This document shows, piece by piece, positions 2 to 10,838 of a stretch of DNA of 10,838 nt. The notes under the pieces are model-generated. The model made no database searches. It saw only the letters and a list, made by a program, of their open reading frames with translations, and had not been told where the DNA came from. Every line of letters starts with the position of its first letter. Positions within the stretch are counted from its first letter, which is position 1. A program made the translations under genes and the position numbers. The DNA is from a virus, in the UHGV virus genome UHGV-0114065; one strand, given 5' to 3'.

Positions 2-607
2 AAAAGCGCAAAGTATGCCGCAGAAGCTCAGAAGTATGCCGCAGACCTGCAAAATAAGCAGTTCAACACCATCATGAACAACCTGAAGCCGTTTACTCCT
101 CTGGCTGATAAGTATCTCGGCAGCCTCGAGAACTTATCGTCTCTGGAAGGGCAAGGTCAGGCGCTTAACCAGTATTACAACTCTCAGCAGTATAAAGATC
201 TTGCTGGTCAGGCTCGCTATCAGAGTCTGGCGGCAGCGGAAGCAACAGGTGGATTGGGTTCCACCGCAACCAGTAATCAGTTAGCAACAATCGCACCAAC
301 GCTTGGTCAGCAATGGCTATCTGGACAAATGAACAATTACAACAACCTGGCAAATATCGGTCTTGGCGCTCTTCAGGGACAGGCAAACGCCGGGCAAACA
401 TATGCCAACAACATGAGTCAGATTTCACAGCAAAGCGCGGCGCTGGCGGCGGCAAACGCCAACCGACCGTCAGCATTGCAGCAGGGTGTTAGTGGTGCTG
501 CATCCGGTGCGCTTTTGGGTGGTGGCATAGCCAGTGCTCTCGAGCTATCAACTCCGTGGGGTGCTGGTATCGGTGCTGGTCTTGGTCTGCTTGGTTCACT
601 GTTTTAA
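2..607 (+). CDS. DNA-ejection (E) protein, P22 gp7-like; 5' end lies upstream of the window (frame open from nt 2, first in-window ATG at 74)
   Basis: Frame 2 has no stop from nt 2 to TAA at 605-607. Low-complexity Q/A/G/N-rich sequence typical of podovirus ejection proteins. Sits directly upstream of gp20/gp16-like genes in P22 gene order. An AAGGGG RBS for the next gene follows its stop. Confidence 0.75.
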   Translation, partial: KSAKYAAEAQKYAADLQNKQFNTIMNNLKPFTPLADKYLGSLENLSSLEGQGQALNQYYNSQQYKDLAGQARYQSLAAAEATGGLGSTATSNQLATIAPTLGQQWLSGQMNNYNNLANIGLGALQGQANAGQTYANNMSQISQQSAALAAANANRPSALQQGVSGAASGALLGGGIASALELSTPWGAGIGAGLGLLGSLF

Positions 608-617
608 GGGGTAATCA

Positions 618-1997
618 ATGGCTACGTGGCAACAGGGTATTAATTCTGGTGGGTTTCTTGCTGGCATCGGTGCGCAAAATGAGAATGCGCCAAAGGCAAG
701 CGACATTAATGCAACGCTTGGTCTGATCCGCGAAAACAATGAACTGGCTCGCTCAGGTGCAAATAACGTTGGCCTGACCGCGTTACGTGGTCTGGCTGGA
801 GTTGCTGATATTTACAATCAGGAACAGCAACAGAAAGCTATTAGTGCGTTCAATAAGGTTCACGCTGATGCATGGGCTTCTGGTGATCCATCTGGACTAT
901 TTAAGTTTGCCCAGGAAAATCCAGCGTTTGTTGCACAGGCACAACAGGCGTTTTCCGGTCTTAATGAGCAGCAACGCAACGATATGGGCGATTTAGCCAT
1001 GAGGGCTAACGTCGCTCTTTCCCAGGGACCGGAAGCCTACAGTAAATTCATTACTGACAACAAGGACAGGTTAAATCGCGTTGGTGCTAATGCTGACTGG
1101 ATGATTCAGACAGGTATCCAGAATCCAGAGCAGCTATCACACATGCTGACTACTATGTCTCTCGGTGCGCTTGGACCAGAAAAGGCGTTTGCTGTTCAGG
1201 ACAAGATGGCTGGTCGTGAAATTGACAGAGGCAGGCTGGCAGAGACAATCCGCAGCAATCAGGCTGGCGAGGCGCTAACAGCACGTGGTCAGAATATCAC
1301 GATGCGCGGTCAGGATTTATCGATGCAGAGAGCATCAATGAAAGGATCGGTTGGGAATAATGAGCGTACAGTTCAGTTAGCAGATGGCAGAACTGTAACG
1401 GTAGGCGGGAAGCTTCACGGCGCTGGGGCTAATGCGTTCTACGAAGGTATCGACAACGAGGGGAATATGGTTCGCGTCCCTGCTGGCTCTATTGCCGCTC
1501 CGGCTACATCGGCAGCAAGCGCGCAGAATTACGCAATGAAGAAAGATCTTGATGCAATTTCTGGTGCATCAATTGACGATCTTGGCTTCATGACTGGCAT
1601 TACAGGCTCTTCAGGTTCTCCTGCTCTTGGTGCAGATATTCGTAGCCGTGCATCTGGTGGTGATCAGAGGAAACTATACAACGCTGCACAGCGAATCCAA
1701 GGAAAGATGCAGAATCAGGGCATTGCAGCAGCCAGAGACATGGGGGCATCCGGTATCAACACCGTTGCAGAAGCAAAGATGTATTTTCAAGGTATGCCAC
1801 AGGTTGATTTCTCAAGCCCTGAAGCACTGCAACAATCAATGCGCGACATTCAGCAATATACCGACAATTACAACCAGCAATATAACGTTAATGTCGGTAA
1901 TGGAGGGAAGAAATCATCAATGCAACAGCCGCCTACTCAGCAATCAGCAGGAGGTAGCTACACGTCAAAATCAGGCATTCAATTTACGGTGGAATGA
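618..1997 (+). CDS. DNA-ejection (E) protein, P22 gp20-like
   Basis: 459-aa ORF with ATG at 618 preceded by AAGGGG RBS. Size and position between the gp7-like and gp16-like genes match the P22 7-20-16 block (from memory). Its stop overlaps the next start (ATGATGA at 1994-1999). Confidence 0.8.
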
Positions 1998-3835
1998 TGA
2001 AAGTAACTGCAAACGGTAAGACATTTACCTTCCCTGATGGTACGAGCACGGAAGATATTGGCACCGCCATTGATGAGTATTTTGCTGGTCAGGCTGTTCA
2101 GCAACAAACAGTTAATCAGGCCAATAATGAACCAGCACGTGAAGAACCATCATTGATGCAACAAGCTGGCGATTGGATCACTGGTGGTCAAAGTGCAGGG
2201 CAAATTGCAGAGCAGGCTGGTCGTGGTCTGGTAAACATACCATTTGACGTATTGCAGGGTGGCGCAAGTCTGATTAATGCAATCAGTCAGGGGCTTGGTG
2301 GGCCAAAAGTATTGGATGATGTTTATCGTCCAGTAGACAGACCGACAGACCCCTACGCACAAGCAGGTGAAACAATTGGTGGGTATTTAGTTCCAGGAGT
2401 TGGAACGGCAGGAAGCATGGCTATTGGATCACTGGCAGAGGCCGCAAATCAGAAAGGCGATTTCGCACAAAATGCAGCTAAAAATGCCGGAGTTAACCTT
2501 GCCGCTCAGGGTGTTCTTTCCGCAGCAGCAAAGGGAATAGGGCGTGGAATAACGGCTATAAAAGGTGATATTGCGCCAGAAGTGGCGAAGAAAATTGCCA
2601 CATCAGAATCGATGGGCGTGACACCAATGACATCTGATGTTATCCCGCCGAAAAATGCTTTCACTCGCGGCCTTACTCAGGATGCCGAGGGGGCTTTGCT
2701 CGGGACAGGCTCAAAGAGAGCGGAGCAATATGCAACGCGTAGTAAGCTGGTAAGCAATTATTTTGACCGTTTTGGTGAGTACAACCCTGATGATGTGGTG
2801 AAATCTCTGACCACCACGTTAAGGGGGCGGAAGGATGCCGCTGGCGCTGTTATCAATGACATCACCAATAAAATGGGTAATGCCGCAGTTGATACCACAA
2901 ATACCATGAATGCTCTGAATACAGCGATCGCAAGACAGGAACGACTTGGGACGTCTGCCAATCAAAGCCTGCTTACATCCTTGCGTAACCTACGTGAAGA
3001 ATTAGCAAACCCTGCAACTGATTTGGATGTTACGTTTGATCTCTTGCGTCAGCACAGAACGGCATTTAGATCTAATGTTCAGGGAGATGCTATGGTCTTC
3101 CCCAACCAGGCAAAAGCAGCTACCAATATGGTAGAGAATGCAATGTCAAAAGACCTTCGTAACGCAGTTGCAAAAAACCTCGGTGCATCAGACGCAGCAA
3201 AATACCTTAAAGCAAATTCTGATTATGCAAACGTTTATAATAAGGTGCTTAATAAAAACATTGCTAACAAACTCAACAAGGCAAGCAGTGAAGCCAGCCC
3301 TGAACTTATAAATACCGTTGTATTAAGCAGAAAACCATCTGACGTGAAACGAATATGGAGCGCACTGGATGATAAAGGGAAAGATGCTATGCGTGCAGCT
3401 TACGTCAGCAAAATAGCGGAAAAGGTCGGTGTCTCTCCAGCCAAGTTCATCACTGAAGTTAATAAGCTGAAATCTCAGTCAGGCGGTGAAATTTACAACA
3501 CTATTTTTTCTGGAAAGCACATGAAAGAGCTTGATGCTCTTCATGAAGTTCTACAGCAAACAGCAAGGTCAGACACCGCAAATGTAGTAACTCAGACGGG
3601 GCAATCACAAGCCAACAGGATAAGGACGATTGGCGCAACTGCGACTCTTGGCGTATCAATGGGGATTGAGGCTGGTTTTGGTGCAATGATGCGTTTGTAT
3701 GAGTCCAAAGCAGCAAGGAATGCGCTCTTACGTCTGGCAAACACTAAAGCTGGAACGCCAGCTTATGAAAGAGCGCTAAATCAGGCTGCTACTGCCGTGC
3801 GCCCGCTCTTAGCTAACGAAGCGACCCGGCAGTAG
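1994..3835 (+). CDS. DNA-ejection (E) protein, P22 gp16-like
   Basis: 613-aa ORF, translationally coupled to the upstream gene. Length is close to P22 gp16 (about 609 aa, from memory). It is the last gene of the late structural operon before the immI region. Confidence 0.8.
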
Positions 3836-3857
3836 CACTGTAAGCCAAGGACGGCAT

Positions 3858-4340
3858 TTATTTTATAGTTTTTATGAATTCTTTATTAAATCCCTTAGCT
3901 TCTCCGGGGTATCTTCCAAAGACAATTTTTATAAAAACAGAAAAAATAAAGATAGCAACGCTTAACAACAGTTGCAGTATCATTGGAACCCAAAGAACTA
4001 CAGGCTCTATATTCATGAAACCAAATATTCTTCCGGCGATCATGGCGAAGTACCACACTGTTATCAGCAAACTTAGTGGCATATGAATTACTGATATTAC
4101 CAATCCAAGAGCATCAGTAATTCTATTTTCAAATTTTTCAGGGGAAAACTTTTCTTTAAGGTAATTCAGTGCGCAGGTCTCATTCTCTGGATTTTCAGCA
4201 TTTTTCCCTATAGCAATAGAAATCTCAGATATCCTTGATTCAATTCTTTTGCGTTTAATAAAACTAGAAAAAAAGAACCACGCAATCTGCAACCCTATCC
4301 CCATAAATAGAGTTGCGGCAACTAGCACAGCGTAACTCAT
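3858..4340 (-). CDS. Small inner-membrane protein (about 160 aa, three predicted TM helices) at the position of P22 sieA; candidate superinfection-exclusion protein
   Basis: Minus-strand ORF. Start placed at the first ATG (complement of 4338-4340, [24 protein letters not shown]...) rather than the GTG at 4424 given by the ORF track. Three long hydrophobic stretches are visible by eye. The DNA is AT-rich. Gene order 16 > / < membrane gene / < unknown / < mnt mirrors P22 16-sieA-hkcC-mnt as recalled. Homology to SieA itself was not verified. Confidence 0.55.
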
Positions 4341-4569
4341 AGAATCAGACACACCAACCTCTTTAGTTTTTCTAGTTACTTTGTCACGATAGGATATGCG
4401 AATTGATAAAACTAAATTGCGCACATGATAACTCAGTAATAATTGTTAATGAAAACATGATCACCTATATTGCACAAGGCGAAACAGGAAGCATAATCTG
4501 GTTTCATGAGTGTGATCACGTTTGGGTAAATCAAAGTCAAGAGGAAATACTTGAAATTATCAAAAATAA

Positions 4570-5151
4570 CTATCTAAACGTTGCACACGACTCATCTATC
4601 CATTTTTCATAAAATTGTATACCGAGATAGGCAAGAACAGATGGATGTATATCAACAAGCTTTTCGCCAAGATGTTCTGTTGGAGGTGGATAATCTTTGC
4701 CTTGGTTTCTTACGGTTATAGGCATAGTTGTTGCTGGATGAAACTCAACTATCATAGGGTCGCCTTCGTATTTTGCTATTTTCCCTGTTGAATCAATGAT
4801 TAACTCTTTAATATAATGGCTTCTTGCTCCCGGAAATGCCCCAAGAGTAGTATAAGGAGGTTCAAGTTTTGAGATTTCCATAGTGGAATGATGATCAGCA
4901 TTTCTTGCTTGGTGAAGGTAAGCAAGTGTTTTGTCTGTTTTTCTAAGCATGAACTTTTGGTTGAAGTGGCTGCTAAATTTTCCACTAACCGGCTTTGTTG
5001 CACAGAGCAACTTACTGAAAGACTTTTCTATATGCCCAAGACATTCTCGCCAGTGCATTTCAAAATCATCATGGTTTGTAGATGATTTCATCTGCTCTAG
5101 GCACTTTTTAGCTGCGATGATTTCTTTTTTTGCTGGGTTGTAATCGATCAT
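4570..5151 (-). CDS. Hypothetical protein (193 aa), translationally coupled downstream of mnt; function unknown
   Basis: Minus-strand ORF whose ATG (complement of 5149-5151) overlaps the mnt stop codon (ATGA overlap at 5148-5151). No TM segments and no motif I can assign. AT-rich. Confidence 0.7.
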   Translation of the reverse strand: MIDYNPAKKEIIAAKKCLEQMKSSTNHDDFEMHWRECLGHIEKSFSKLLCATKPVSGKFSSHFNQKFMLRKTDKTLAYLHQARNADHHSTMEISKLEPPYTTLGAFPGARSHYIKELIIDSTGKIAKYEGDPMIVEFHPATTMPITVRNQGKDYPPPTEHLGEKLVDIHPSVLAYLGIQFYEKWIDESCATFR

Positions 5152-5402
5152 TTTGCATCCTTGCCATACATGTTTTTAAGTGTCTCAAATACCACAGACT
5201 TGAACTGTTCAGCCTGCATCTCGGCTAATCGTTCAGCTTCATTGCGATAACCTTTTACAGGAGATGGTCTCGATAGAGCATCTTGGACGATTTGCAACAA
5301 TTCTGAGTTCATTGATCTACCATTTGACTCTGCTCTGTATTTTAATTTTTCTCTTACTTCCAAAGGCATGCGGAAGTTAAAGTGCGGATCATCTCTAGCC
5401 AT
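5148..5402 (-). CDS. mnt: Mnt repressor (ribbon-helix-helix; maintenance of Pant repression in lysogens)
   Basis: 84-aa product MARDDPHFNFRMPLEVREKLKYRAESNGRSMNSELLQIVQDAL... closely matches the P22 Mnt N-terminal RHH domain as I recall it. It is divergent from arc across the operator region. GGAG lies 9 nt upstream of the ATG on the minus strand. Confidence 0.9.
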   Translation of the reverse strand: MARDDPHFNFRMPLEVREKLKYRAESNGRSMNSELLQIVQDALSRPSPVKGYRNEAERLAEMQAEQFKSVVFETLKNMYGKDAK

Positions 5403-5424
5403 GCCATCACTCCAAGTTAGTGTA

Positions 5425-5453
5425 TTGACATGATAGAAGCACTCTACTATATT
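5425..5453 (+). promoter_or_regulatory. Pant promoter (-35 TTGACA 5425-5430, 17-bp spacer, -10 TATATT 5448-5453)
   Basis: Consensus -35 and near-consensus -10 with the arc operator in the spacer, as in the P22 immI region. It drives arc-ant. Confidence 0.8.
5430..5450. promoter_or_regulatory. Arc operator (21 bp, ATGATAGAAGCACTCTACTAT)
   Basis: Exact match to the P22 Oarc sequence as recalled, with TAGA/TCTA half-sites. It lies between the -35 and -10 of both Pant and Pmnt. Confidence 0.8.
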
Positions 5454-5458
5454 CTCAA
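5430..5458 (-). promoter_or_regulatory. Pmnt promoter (minus strand: -35 TTGAGA at 5453-5458, 17-bp spacer, -10 TATCAT at 5430-5435)
   Basis: Divergent promoter overlapping Pant. The hexamers were read from the reverse complement. Arrangement is consistent with the known P22 Pant/Pmnt overlap. Confidence 0.6.
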
Positions 5459-5477
5459 TAGGTCCACCGTGGACCTA
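5459..5477. promoter_or_regulatory. Mnt operator (palindrome TAGGTCCACCGTGGACCTA)
   Basis: 19-bp near-perfect palindrome centred on one base, matching the P22 Omnt as recalled. It overlaps the predicted Pant transcription start. Confidence 0.8.
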
Positions 5478-5492
5478 TATTGTGAGGTGAAC

Positions 5493-5654
5493 ATGAAAGG
5501 AATGAGCAAAATGCCGCAGTTCAATTTGCGGTGGCCTAAAGAAGTATTGGATTTGGTACGCAAGGTGGCGGAAGAGAATGGTCGGTCTGTTAACTCTGAG
5601 ATTTATCAGAGAGTAATGGACAGCTTTAAGAAGGAAGGGCGTATTGGCGCGTAA
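5493..5654 (+). CDS. arc: Arc repressor (53 aa, ribbon-helix-helix)
   Basis: [53 protein letters not shown] differs from recalled P22 Arc at only two positions (R16K, E43D). GAGGTG RBS precedes the ATG at 5493. The longer ORF from 5430 in the track runs through the operators and is not the real start. Confidence 0.93.
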
Positions 5655-5722
5655 AGTTGAAGCCCCAACTGCGGGAACAGTCAGGGCTTCTGTTGTCAGT
5701 AAATTCGTGGAGAAAAACCAAC
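5654..5722 (-). ncRNA. sar: sar antisense RNA (about 69 nt) complementary to the arc-ant intercistronic region and ant RBS
   Basis: Extended -10 promoter on the minus strand (TGCTATACT, complement of 5729-5737) places a start near 5722, the complement of the ant ATG. The transcript would cover the ant RBS (5709-5717) and a 7-bp inverted repeat (5659-5665 / 5684-5690), ending near the arc stop. This matches the published P22 sar arrangement; the ends are inferred, not measured. Confidence 0.45.
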
Positions 5723-6625
5723 ATGAATAGTATAGCAATTTTAGAAGCAGTGAACACCTCTTACGTACCTTTCAATGGTCAGCAGATTATCACCGCCATG
5801 ACTGCCGGAGTTGCATATGTTGCGATGAAGCCAATCGTTGAAAACCTTGGAATGAGCTGGTCAACGCAGCAAACAAAACTCATGAAGCAGATTAGCAAAT
5901 TCAACTGTGTTCATATGAACATGGTTGCCGCTGATGGTAAGCTTCGTAAGCTACTCTGCCTTCCTTTGAAGAAGTTAAATGGATGGCTGTTCAGCATCAA
6001 CCCTGAGAAAGTTCGTGCTGACATCCGCGATAAACTGATTCAGTACCAGGAAGAATGCTTTACTGTGCTGCATGACTACTGGACGAAGGGAAAGGCAGAA
6101 AATGCACGTAAGAAAACATCTGTTGATGACAGGACTCCGCTTCGTGATGCTGTAAATATGCTAGTCAGCAAAAAGCATCTAATGTACCCAGAAGCTTATG
6201 CAATGATTCATCAGCGTTTCAACGTGGAAAGTATTGAAGAGCTTGATTCATCTCAGATACCGCAAGCAGTAGAGTACATCCACAGGGTAGTGCTTGAAGG
6301 CGAGTTCATCGGCAAACAAGAGAAGAAAACCAACGAGCTTTCTGCAAAAGAAGCAAACAGCCTTGTATGGCTATGGGATTATGCCAACCGCTCACAGGCA
6401 TTATTCCGCGAACTGTATCCGGCGCTGAAACAAATTCAATCGAACTATTCCGGCAGATGTCATGACTGCGGTTATGAGTTCTCCCGTATTATCGATATAG
6501 CGAGAGACGTTTTAATCAATCACACACGAGATGTTGATATTAATGAGCCAGACGGACCAACGAATCTTTCCGCATGGATGAGACTTAAGAATAAAGAATT
6601 ACCTCCTTCAGTACATAACTACTGA
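5723..6625 (+). CDS. ant: Antirepressor Ant (300 aa)
   Basis: Start placed at ATG 5723 ([21 protein letters not shown]...) with GGAGAAAAA RBS; the track ORF from 5657 is an upstream in-frame extension. Position after arc and length of 300 aa match P22 Ant. Confidence 0.88.
5729..5737 (-). promoter_or_regulatory. Psar extended -10 element (TGnTATACT on minus strand)
   Basis: Read from the reverse complement of 5729-5737, inside the first codons of ant. No good -35 is present, consistent with an extended -10 promoter. Confidence 0.45.
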
Positions 6626-6725: not shown

Positions 6726-8495
6726 ATGACAGACATTACAGCCAATGTGATCGTATCGATGCCTTCGCAACTCTTCACTATGGCGCGTTCTTTTAAAGCT
6801 GTTGCCAATGGCAAAATTTATATCGGAAAAATTGACACTGACCCGGTAAATCCTGAAAACCAGATTCAGGTTTATGTAGAGAACGAAGACGGCTCTCACG
6901 TTCCTGTTTCGCAACCAATCATCATTAACGCTGCTGGTTACCCGGTATATAACGGACAGATTGCCAAGTTCGTAACTGTGCAAGGCCATTCTATGGCTGT
7001 TTATGATGCGTACGGTGCGCAGCAGTTTTATTATCCGAACGTACTAAAATACGACCCGGATCAGTACAGTAAAATGGTCGGAGGCCTTACAACACCAGTA
7101 ACATGGCCTGGGTTTGCCGGAGGAGCAGATCCGACCGGAGTTAATTCATCTACAGCGGCTTTTCAAGCGTCATTGGATCAGATCGGCTACATTAACATGC
7201 CGCCAGGGGAGTACTTAATTGATGAAAGCTTAAACCTTGCAAAATCAGCTGTAATCTTTGGTGCTGGGAGATCGCTATCGAAGTTAAAATTCTCCGGGAA
7301 TTCTGCAACGCCTTTCGTTAAGGCTGCATTAGGGTACGCATCAACCGATTTAGTATATTTGCGTGATTTCACAGCCATTGCCACAGTTCCAAACTGCGGC
7401 CCTCTGGTTTCAATAAAAACAGATGCCGCCGCGCAATCTGCATCTCAGGTCGTTGTTGGTGATTTAGACAAACTAGTCATTAACAATGTTGATGCTTATG
7501 GTGATTCAAGCGGGAACTACTGGAATTGTGGCTTTGAAGCCATCGACTGCGGTGGTGTCCATATTCATAATTTCACAGTTAATAACAGGACTGTTTCGGC
7601 GCAAACTGACACATCGACATCTGGATTCAGGTTCAGAACTACGGCGCAAAAAGTAAGTGTAATACGCGCCCTGACAGCACAGGATTTCTACCTACTGAGA
7701 ATGTATTACGGCATCGACACGAAGCCGTTTAATAATCTCGGGGGCGGGATTACCAGTTATTATCTTTCCGACTTCGAAATCGTTGGCGTCAGGAATGGAA
7801 TAAGGGCTCAGAACTGGTGTGCGGCATGGCGAGTTACTGGGCATATCGATTCTACTGAGCAATGCCTAAACTTCCAGGGGGCGGGATTAACAAACGCACG
7901 GTTCACTGGCTGCGATTTCAGAAAAGGGAATAACGGCGGGCTAGGTTATGTTGCAGGACCAATGGTTACCCTGGACTACGGTGAGCAAATAACTTTCACG
8001 GGCGCGACGTTCTCCGGAATAAACCTCAATCTTGCTGACCCAAGCAATACTGCTTTTAGTTTTACCAATGCTTACAACGGCAACTGGGCATTTCTGATCA
8101 GTATTGACGGAAATACTTTTACTAAGTTTCACAACGTCATTGGGCAGACTAATAGCACCAATATTATTAGTATCGGCATTAATTCTTACAACCAGATTGC
8201 CGATGCAATAACCTTCGATTCAAATCTTGATCCAAGCTTTAGGCTTCAGACACCAATTCCAAGCATCAGCAAAGTTGTTGCCTTGCCAGTGGGAGATAGT
8301 ACATTTACCGTAAATGTTACCGCTAACCGTTTCAAAAATGCGCCTAACTATGCTGATGCTCGCCCGGTGAATAACCCAACTCAGAATGTCAGGGTTGTTT
8401 ATGATTATGCCGGATCTACAGCGAGCGCACTGCTTTTTAGGGTTTATGGAGTGGTGACCGCTGGGAACTTCCGATTTGGCATAATTACGGCATAA
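6726..8495 (+). CDS. Tailspike protein: P22 gp9-type N-terminal head-binding domain (about aa 1-115) fused to a divergent receptor-binding/enzymatic domain
   Basis: N-terminus [34 protein letters not shown]...VTVQGHSM...[11 protein letters not shown] matches the P22 tailspike head-binding domain from memory. Downstream of about nt 7070 the sequence is unrelated to the P22 endorhamnosidase domain. GGAG RBS at 6713-6716. Confidence 0.85.
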
Positions 8496-8513: not shown

Positions 8514-8807
8514 ATGCGAGATATTTCACCACTGCTTCATGCTGTCACCGCTTTAGCTGTTCAGGCTGCTTTTGGCCTTTCCTCACGCGATTGGATAACT
8601 GGGGGTCTGCTGGGGAGTCTTTGGTTTATCGCTCGCGAGCACACCCAGGCTGAGTATCGCTGGATTGCCCAGTTCGGCGCAGGGAAGCGCGCCAACATGC
8701 CGTGGTGGGGCGGGTTCTCCTGGCGCGCATGGAACCTTCCCAGCATGCTCGACTGGATTGTGCCGGTGGCGACCTGCGCTGCCGTTTATTTTGCCTCCAC
8801 CCTTTAA
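8514..8807 (+). CDS. Hypothetical small membrane protein (97 aa), G+C-rich cargo gene immediately downstream of the tailspike
   Basis: ATG at 8514 with AGGAG RBS 6 nt upstream. Two or three hydrophobic/Trp-rich segments by eye. Composition is visibly more G+C-rich than flanking phage genes. It sits where P22-like phages carry O-antigen conversion genes (gtr or oac). Confidence 0.6.
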   Translation: MRDISPLLHAVTALAVQAAFGLSSRDWITGGLLGSLWFIAREHTQAEYRWIAQFGAGKRANMPWWGGFSWRAWNLPSMLDWIVPVATCAAVYFASTL

Positions 8808-8863
8808 CTCCTGTCGAGCTCATTGATAGGCGCCGACACATTGATCTGCACCTCCTTTAAAAC

Positions 8864-8883
8864 TACTGTATATAAAAACAGTA
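8864..8883. promoter_or_regulatory. LexA (SOS) box TACTGTATATAAAAACAGTA
   Basis: CTGT-N8-ACAG with 18 of 20 positions matching the E. coli consensus TACTGTATATATATACAGTA. It ends 1 nt before the AAGGAG RBS (8885-8890) of the downstream gene. Confidence 0.7.
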
Positions 8884-8898
8884 AAAGGAGTGCAGGTC

Positions 8899-9138
8899 AT
8901 GCCACGCCGTTCCGACATTCACGCCGCATTTGTGGCCGCAATACAGCTAAACCCCAAGGGCTACCGGTGCTTACGCACAGAAGACTTTATCCGCGAACTG
9001 GCAAAGGTCCACTGGCATTTCAGCCGGGCCGACGCCAACGAGTGGATAGAGCGCTATCAGCCCGACTTCACCGACAAGACAACTGACGGAACCGACAATC
9101 ACTACTGGATCCTGCGCAATATGGGGAGGGTTCACTGA
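8899..9138 (+). CDS. Hypothetical small protein (79 aa), first gene of the SOS-box-controlled cassette
   Basis: ATG at 8899 with AAGGAG 8 nt upstream; the ORF track starts it at a GTG at 8890 inside the RBS. Its stop overlaps the next gene's start (TGATG at 9136-9140). No recognisable family. Confidence 0.6.
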   Translation: MPRRSDIHAAFVAAIQLNPKGYRCLRTEDFIRELAKVHWHFSRADANEWIERYQPDFTDKTTDGTDNHYWILRNMGRVH

Positions 9139-9455
9139 TGGGCTTTCCTTCACCGGCGGGCGACTACGTAGAGCAGCGGTTAACACCGGAGCGTATCTGC
9201 GGGATCGGCATGGACAGCCGCATCCTCGAAACATCATCCGGCTTTGCCGTTATCGAACCGTGCACCAGGCTGGTACAGAATCAGGTTCTGCTGATTTTAT
9301 CTGGCGGCAGAACGCAGTTTGCCAGGGTAATGGGTAGGGCATTAATCACTGATGATGGTGAAGCGATCGAAGGGGAGGAGGCGGAGGAAGTTGAGGTGCT
9401 GGGGCGCGTGACGTTCTTCATCAACAGCGCGCTACAGGATGACAGGGTGGTTTGA
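9138..9455 (+). CDS. UmuD'-like protein (degenerate S24/LexA-type peptidase fold, starts at the position of the UmuD cleavage site; catalytic Ser/Lys not evident)
   Basis: N-terminus MGFPSPAGDYVEQRL matches UmuD residues 25-38 (GFPSPAADYVEQRI), the first residues of processed UmuD'. The C-terminal pattern EVEVLGRVTFFINSA resembles the last beta-strands of UmuD/LexA. GGGGAGGG RBS 7 nt upstream. I could not find the conserved Ser-Met and Thr-Val-Lys motifs. Confidence 0.65.
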   Translation: MGFPSPAGDYVEQRLTPERICGIGMDSRILETSSGFAVIEPCTRLVQNQVLLILSGGRTQFARVMGRALITDDGEAIEGEEAEEVEVLGRVTFFINSALQDDRVV

Positions 9456-10785: not shown

Positions 10786-10838
10786 GGTGTCCCCTGCAGG
10801 AATCGAACCTGCAATTAGCCCTTAGGAGGGGCTCGTTA
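10786..10838 (-). tRNA. argW: tRNA-Arg (anticodon CCU), 3' portion only; 5' part lies beyond the window end. Probable prophage attL core
   Basis: Reverse complement of 10786-10838 reads TAACGAGCCCCTCCTAAGGGCTAATTGCAGGTTCGATTCCTGCAGGGGACACCA. This gives an anticodon arm AGCCC-CUCCUAA-GGGCU (anticodon CCU), a T-arm with GGTTCGATTCC, and a 3' CCA. It matches enterobacterial argW from memory. Confidence 0.9.

Follow-up and report, generated by a model that had tools for sequence, protein, structure and literature searches.

The window analyzed in this study, a stretch of 10,838 nucleotides, constitutes the right arm of a P22-like prophage, as determined from its open reading frame (ORF) listing and from family scans. 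Gene order in the window (gp20, gp16, then sieA, orf193 and mnt on the minus strand, followed by arc, ant and the tailspike) agrees with the P22 annotation, and the features are located as follows:

74..607, C-terminal part of gene 7
618..1997, plus strand, gene 20 ejection protein, 83% identical to P22 gp20
1997..3835, plus strand, gene 16 ejection protein, 76% identical to P22 gp16
3858..4352, minus strand, sieA coding sequence (CDS) of type A, 164 amino acids (aa) plus stop, with a probable GTG start at 4352..4350
4353..4569, minus strand, spacer between orf193 and sieA, 217 bp, GC 0.33, part of the orf193 module
4570..5151, minus strand, orf193, 193 aa, phrog_23516 (E 7e-120), unknown function
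5148..5402, minus strand, mnt repressor gene, Pfam Arc (E 2.8e-27) and Repressor_Mnt (E 3.4e-11)
5458..5430, minus strand, promoter-like site Pmnt, 10/12 matches
5655..5722, minus strand, full sar antisense RNA, Rfam RF00262 (91 bits), at the arc-ant junction
5657..6625, ant, preceded by arc
6726..8495, plus strand, tailspike, 589 aa
9466..10659, minus strand, tyrosine integrase
10788..10838, minus strand, 3' part of a tRNA (Rfam), cut by the end of the window

The sieA gene occupies the slot between homologues of genes 16 and 9 and is oriented opposite to the late operon; it converges with gene 16, and 22 bp separate the two stop codons. The tRNA fragment adjoins the integrase gene and probably belongs to the attachment site. 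Positions 8514..9455 (plus strand), located between the tailspike and integrase genes, form a GC-rich block (0.55-0.59) with three small ORFs, which match phrog_1443 (97 aa), phrog_3893 (82 aa) and phrog_3469 (a 105-aa UmuD-like protein, E 9.5e-46, of which the first 21 residues only match the NCBIfam HumD model). The same slot in P22 and in Escherichia coli YA-1 holds the gtr O-antigen conversion genes. The tailspike itself is 589 aa long in the window versus 667 aa in P22, and in strain YA-1 a 100%-identical sieA region is linked to a different tailspike of 684 aa and to gtr genes. Since the YA-1 tailspike differs despite this identity, the exclusion module travels with different receptor-binding modules.

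In its longest form, the ORF at the sieA position runs from 3858 to 4424 on the minus strand (188 codons from a GTG), and reading from the ATG at 4340 would yield 160 aa. Its product aligned without gaps to P22 SieA (BK000583, 164 aa), with 149 of 164 residues identical (91%; BLASTP, E 8e-113), and matched phrog_7745 ('superinfection exclusion SieA-like', E 2e-108), with profile positions 1-164 corresponding to residues 25-188 of the 188-aa ORF. All full-length database homologues of SieA bear the precomputed Pfam label PF26849.1; no significant family was found for SieA in a Pfam copy lacking PF26849 or in NCBIfam, and matches to Kri1 and DUF6161 fell below the cut-off and were dismissed as noise. 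Neither SieA nor orf193 matched a model in PADLOC-DB v2 at E <= 0.01; the library evidently has no model for SieA-type exclusion. A scan of GTDB species-representative genomes for SieA relatives produced 162 pattern matches, of which 0 were confirmed; these representative genomes evidently lack this prophage.

At the DNA level, the window and P22 align collinearly over gene 16 and sieA, as far as the ribosome-binding site. The GC content of sieA is 0.349 (GC3 0.315), compared to 0.47-0.49 in genes 16 and 20 and 0.464 in the whole window, and its dN/dS relative to P22 is 0.31. The BLASTP E-value against P22 SieA together with this dN/dS places the ORF far beyond chance. The preliminary description of this locus had proposed an AT-rich ORF for a small membrane protein, encoded on the opposite strand directly after the ejection-protein genes in the position and orientation of P22 sieA, and had called it SieA-like. 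The base composition and three hydrophobic segments bear out the former, P22 has the same 22-bp convergent geometry, and the SieA-like reading is correct in view of the protein identity (over 164/164 residues), the full-length PHROG match, the shared slot and geometry, the C-terminal motif described below and the names given to near-identical RefSeq copies. The alignment to P22 SieA that it had called for is the one reported above, and the topology prediction that it had also called for returned three hydrophobic helices and an all-helical AlphaFold2 (AF2) model. The orthology of sieA, its intactness, the purifying selection acting on it, its start codon and its genomic context are all observed in the window, and by analogy with the 91%-identical P22 SieA the window allele would be expected to behave likewise. 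Overall, positions 3858..4352 (minus strand) most likely represent sieA, the gene for superinfection exclusion carried by a P22-like prophage in an E. coli chromosome, and its product would exclude P22-like phages at DNA entry; we place the probability of this reading at approximately 0.93.

Hydrophobic segments of the protein were defined by Kyte-Doolittle averages above 1.6 in 19-residue windows, which delimited residues 29-56, 102-137 and 136-174 of the 188-aa frame. In the numbering of the 164-aa protein, the resulting features (all on the minus strand) are:

3882..3920, minus strand, C-terminal motif FxRYPxEAxxFNK, residues 145-157, present in the window translation and predicted to be cytoplasmic
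3918..4004, minus strand, hydrophobic helix 3, approximately residues 117-145 (Kyte-Doolittle; AF2 helix 117-145)
4014..4121, minus strand, hydrophobic helix 2, approximately residues 78-113 (Kyte-Doolittle; AF2 helix 74-110)
4257..4340, minus strand, hydrophobic helix 1, approximately residues 5-32, followed by a positive KRKR cluster (Kyte-Doolittle; AF2 helix 2-48)

The AF2 model, built from nine family members, is all-helical (mean pLDDT 79, pTM 0.59); its long helices cover the hydrophobic segments, and shorter helices were modeled at residues 55-68 and 151-163. Three predicted transmembrane (TM) helices agree with the TMHMM prediction reported for P22 SieA (PMC10883804), and type A SieA is characterized as integral to the membrane, having three predicted TM helices and no signal peptide. 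The C-terminal motif (P22 residues 145-157) is the only one that is well conserved in the SieA family (PMC10883804), and F145, R147, Y148, P149, E151, A152, F155, N156 and K157 do not vary among homologues with identities as low as 55%, which come from Yersinia and Serratia. A PDB sequence search, as well as a Foldseek comparison of the AF2 model with the PDB, identified no meaningful relative of SieA. The predicted topology has the N-terminus outside and the C-terminus inside, with a cytoplasmic loop of approximately 45 residues and a cytoplasmic tail bearing the motif; the N-terminus of helix 1 is predicted to be periplasmic based on the positive-inside rule, given the KRKR cluster after helix 1 and five Lys/Arg residues in the C-terminal tail. 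Only the first few residues and a loop of approximately 7 residues between helices 2 and 3 lie on the periplasmic side in this prediction. With so little of SieA predicted to be periplasmic, contact with the DNA conduit would more likely occur within the membrane (with gp16) than in the periplasm.

SieA is a classical exclusion system of P22, and the work of Hofer et al. in 1995 is said to be the original sieA paper. One chromosomal copy of P22 sieA, together with the 85 bp of DNA upstream, reduces the plating of P22 by a factor of at least 10^7, reduces its lysogenisation by 10^5 and abolishes the K+ efflux that accompanies DNA entry, and FLAG-tagged P22 SieA fractionates with the inner membrane only (PMC10883804). 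The protein acts on P22-like phages only and is active in both Salmonella and E. coli; in E. coli hosts, exclusion holds CUS-3 to <=10^-8 and affects HK620 only weakly (PMC10883804). The block to DNA entry suggested in the preliminary description is the activity demonstrated for P22 SieA, in E. coli hosts too (PMC10883804). Based on these properties, the 164-aa SieA expressed from the prophage would be an inner-membrane protein with three TM helices that, once superinfecting P22-like phages or generalized transducing particles have adsorbed, stops them by keeping the incoming DNA from crossing the inner membrane, with gp16 and gp20 as the putative targets. An indirect route via a host protein such as YajC was left possible by Leavitt et al. 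2024 (PMC10883804).

Escape from P22 SieA needs changes in gp16 (G532W, P546S) combined with changes in gp20 (T338I, T341I, A348T, G350D) (PMC10883804 Table 2). All of the residues at the escape positions of gp20 (T338, T341, A348 and G350) are conserved in the window gp20, and the window gp16 retains G532 and has Ala in place of P546. The escape segment of gp16 (approximately residues 540-578) is roughly half identical to P22 by eye, compared to 76% for the protein overall. We infer that the prophage's own virions would be excluded, as those of P22 are, because gp16 P546S alone gives no escape in P22 and very divergent ejection proteins are still sensitive to SieA (PMC10883804).

The start codon of P22 SieA is called uncertain in the literature, with the protein described as a '162- or 164-amino acid' product (PMC10883804). 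In the window, the relevant features upstream of helix 1 are:

4353..4424, minus strand, in-frame 24-codon extension of the 188-aa form, found in this upstream module only
4357..4361, minus strand, Shine-Dalgarno sequence (SD) GAGGT, read from the sequence (GGAGGT in P22)

The SD lies 5 nt upstream of GTG 4352, which is the start codon annotated for P22 sieA, and 17 nt upstream of ATG 4340; no convincing SD was seen upstream of GTG 4424. In a comparison of P22 and 33 IMG/VR loci, a set with at least five unrelated upstream modules, the SD was conserved in 33/33 related loci plus P22 whatever the upstream module, with conservation beginning at AAAACTAA(A/G)GAGGTTGGTGTG. Three of the upstream modules contain no start codon between the nearest in-frame stop and the equivalent of GTG 4352. 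The SieA homologues with 55-82% identity have lengths of 164-165 aa and retain M1-S2-D3-S4, while three of them have Ile or Phe at position 5, the equivalent of ATG 4340; it follows that codons 2-4 code for protein and that Met5 cannot serve as a general start. In E. coli Z1323HEC0422, the mnt-orf193-spacer sequence is identical through AGAGGTTGGTGTG and is followed by an unrelated gene of 129 codons, which puts a mosaic junction directly 3' of GTG 4352. The evidence thus favors a sieA CDS of 3858..4352, and the start of SieA is probably GTG 4352 rather than GTG 4424 or ATG 4340. The preliminary description had wavered between the latter two and overlooked GTG 4352; both of its candidates are probably wrong. 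Starting at GTG 4352, the protein has the length of type A SieA (approximately 164 aa) and lacks the extension with an extra TM helix that marks types B and C. The residues encoded upstream, from 4424, form a strongly basic stretch (net charge approximately +5) with no hydrophobic segment, which would be ill-suited to a position before helix 1 if the N-terminus is outside as predicted, and 4353..4424 is probably 5' untranslated region rather than coding sequence.

Sequence homology to P22 is lost just 5' of the SD, and the spacer shows no homology to the PsieA region of P22. The P22 record (BK000583) places a putative PsieA at 31-61 bp upstream of the start and a terminator after orf59a, between mnt and sieA. 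The AT-rich spacer of 229 bp noted in the preliminary description spans 4341..4569 as it had indicated, and measured from the start at 4352 it comprises 217 bp with a GC content of 0.327. A consensus scan of 3700..5500 detected no minus-strand promoter (threshold 9/12) or terminator in the spacer, and the overall counts across the scanned region were not above those in shuffled sequences. The best promoter-like site in the spacer, found in a looser scan, consists of a -35 TTCATT (4453..4448), a 17-nt gap and a -10 TATCAT (4430..4425) and scores 8-9/12, a value reached as often in dinucleotide shuffles. RNA folding of the spacer revealed no unusual structure (z = -0.23), and no Rfam family was found in it. 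A 69-aa ORF on the plus strand (4403..4612) was rejected as a gene for want of a PHROG or PADLOC match or a significant NCBIfam one. Two routes of expression are possible given the weak site in the spacer, the lack of a detected terminator and the intact Pmnt: sieA may be transcribed from its own weak promoter in the spacer, which the preliminary description had suggested and which is plausible, or by read-through from Pmnt across mnt and orf193. Because the P22 PsieA region is absent and the match in the spacer is weak, expression of sieA in the lysogen is assumed.

The replacement of the P22 PsieA region by an unrelated spacer through recombination might have left sieA silent or decaying in this prophage. 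In addition to the loss of P22 homology just upstream of the SD and the lack of a minus-strand promoter at the 9/12 threshold, sieA is expendable, as it is interrupted by ISSen4 in E. coli strain 81 and replaced by another gene in prophages with the same upstream module. However, the ORF is full-length, with its SD, its start codon and every invariant family residue intact and a dN/dS of 0.31, and 12 complete E. coli genomes, along with several IMG/VR contigs, retain the arrangement of spacer and sieA at 98.5-100% identity. Moreover, no terminator was found between sieA and the Pmnt-driven mnt-orf193 genes, and in P22 low transcription of sieA still brings about more than 10^7-fold exclusion (PMC10883804). 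A silent gene is therefore considered very unlikely. Even less likely is a real product of 188 aa from GTG 4424, a SieA variant that would have a basic cytoplasmic N-terminal extension and perhaps an altered topology or specificity. The frame is open from 4424, RefSeq records annotate the 188-aa product, the protein database includes gene calls of 188-209 aa, and SieA types B and C have N-terminal extensions of 30-40 residues (PMC10883804), but those extensions carry an extra TM helix, which the 24-residue extension with its charge of approximately +5 does not. Furthermore, the conserved SD precedes 4352 and no good one precedes 4424, the extension is confined to this upstream module, an upstream start is lacking in three others, and a different cassette uses the same SD and GTG in Z1323HEC0422. 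The best -10-like hexamer (4430..4425) also abuts 4424, so that transcription driven by it would begin downstream of 4424.

The protein could also be a membrane protein with some other function (holin-like, immunity or transport), with its similarity to SieA reflecting common descent only. The absence of a PADLOC or NCBIfam model match and of a solved structure or structural neighbor leaves room for such a role; however, even a type B SieA with 24% identity gave an indistinguishable exclusion phenotype (PMC10883804), and a changed function has a negligible chance given 91% identity to a protein that is both necessary and sufficient for exclusion and the same genomic position.

The stop codon of mnt and the start of orf193 overlap by 4 nt (ATGA). 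No match to orf193 was found in Pfam, NCBIfam, PADLOC or the PDB, and tblastn against isolated phages found none; its single-sequence AF2 model, with a pLDDT of 40, was unusable. The slot held by orf193 in the window is held by orf59a in P22. Across sieA loci, this is a hyper-variable moron slot that elsewhere contains a seeming toxin-antitoxin pair, a LexA-like repressor (judged by sequence alone) or P22 orf59a. A sequence of approximately 20 bp, AAAACTAA(A/G)GAGGTTGGTGTG (4350..4370, minus strand), is the sole sequence common to at least five upstream modules and two downstream cassettes, with mosaic junctions flanking the SD and start codon on both sides. In other E. coli P22-like prophages, an identical mnt-orf193-spacer-SD-GTG stretch is followed by a 129-aa ORF instead of sieA (2614..3003, minus strand, of the extracted locus in Z1323HEC0422, where the junction corresponds to window position 4350). 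This ORF belongs to phrog_2651 (unknown function) and has a signal-peptide-like N-terminus (VKQFLAAMFLFISFGATAEC...); RefSeq starts the phrog_2651 gene at an internal ATG, and the location of the homology breakpoint suggests that the gene starts at the shared GTG.

A tentative and improbable proposal, which concerns regulation and modularity rather than the protein, is that the joint of approximately 20 bp (AAAACTAARGAGGTTGGTGTG) acts as a fixed 'expression socket' at the end of immI in P22-like prophages, with swapped modules upstream (orf193, toxin-antitoxin-like or repressor-like) and cargo downstream (sieA or phrog_2651). Under this scenario, sieA would have lost PsieA and would be co-transcribed with mnt and orf193 from Pmnt, and orf193 and phrog_2651 may have undescribed exclusion or defense functions. 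If true, co-transcription from Pmnt would couple exclusion to the Mnt/Arc/Ant circuit.

Compared to P22, the window shares a SieA of 164 aa with three predicted TM helices, the FxRYPxEAxxFNK motif and an SD-GTG start, the convergence of sieA with gene 16 across a 22-bp gap (gene 16 ends at 13313 and sieA is complement 13336..13830 in P22), and an immI neighborhood with mnt, arc, sar and ant, in which the Pant and Pmnt promoters are likewise present. The differences comprise 15 substitutions in SieA, ejection proteins gp16 and gp20 that are 76% and 83% identical, respectively, to those of P22, a host that is E. coli for the window prophage rather than Salmonella, and an upstream region consisting of orf193 and the 217-bp spacer in the window but of orf59a, a divergent 125-aa ORF and PsieA in P22. 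Because this upstream mosaic module differs, the promoter of sieA may differ from that of P22 as well. The P22 125-aa ORF (approximately 13849..14226, unannotated in BK000583) is divergent from sieA, lies between sieA and orf59a and overlaps PsieA; it is probably a real gene, given its match to phrog_1365 (E 7.8e-40).

Two further SieA types share the slot, the TM pattern and the motif: type B, known from the E. coli prophage HS1 (EcHS_A0321), with an exclusion spectrum indistinguishable from that of P22 SieA, and type C, known from Providencia, Morganella and Proteus prophages (PMC10883804). The window SieA clearly belongs to type A and not to B or C, the latter two being known by their description (PMC10883804). 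HK97 gp15 and, in Gram-positive phages, Ltp and Sie2009 are likewise small membrane proteins, encoded by prophages or phages, that block DNA entry after adsorption, and they are overcome by changes in the DNA-conduit proteins of the incoming phage (PMC10883804). All of these proteins target long-tailed phages with a tape-measure conduit or, as with T4 Imm, T-even phages, whereas the target of SieA is the gp7/gp20/gp16 conduit of P22-like podophages; the likeness of SieA to them is functional. T4 Imm is a small injection-blocking inner-membrane exclusion protein; it likewise acts after adsorption and is overcome by changes in the conduit proteins of the phage that enters.

Positions 3700..5450 of the window are 100% identical to the chromosomes of E. 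coli YA-1, ij001 and EC_T6 and 98.5-99.8% identical in nine further complete E. coli genomes. Overall, 35 of 5,426 complete E. coli genomes contain a type A sieA with at least 95% DNA identity. E. coli strain 81 (NZ_CP088131.1) carries a natural knock-out, in which ISSen4, an element of the IS3 family, splits sieA near nt 190. RefSeq names some of the near-identical copies (98.5-99.8% DNA identity) 'superinfection exclusion protein A' and labels the 100%-identical copies 'hypothetical protein', which is the name in most of the records; all of the RefSeq copies examined are annotated with a 567-nt CDS (188 aa) that starts 72 nt upstream of the SD-GTG, and gene calls of 188-209 aa in the database share this over-extended SieA start.

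The presence of sieA in such a prophage is already known: sieA genes of type A or type B occupy this position in E. coli prophages, and the mechanism of P22 SieA was analyzed by Leavitt et al. 2024 (PMC10883804). The absent PADLOC model and structure are database gaps and no sign of novelty. The points of mild interest are the corrected start, the SD-GTG joint with junctions on both sides, orf193 and the phrog_2651 cassette. The practical value of these results lies in annotation, as identical copies in RefSeq are labeled as hypothetical and the RefSeq starts examined lie too far upstream. In addition, the MSDS N-terminus, the variable Met5 and the junctions around the SD-GTG help to resolve the uncertainty about the start codon of P22 SieA itself. 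Finally, by analogy with P22, when P22-like phages are used against E. coli strains that carry this prophage, exclusion at the DNA-injection step would be expected.
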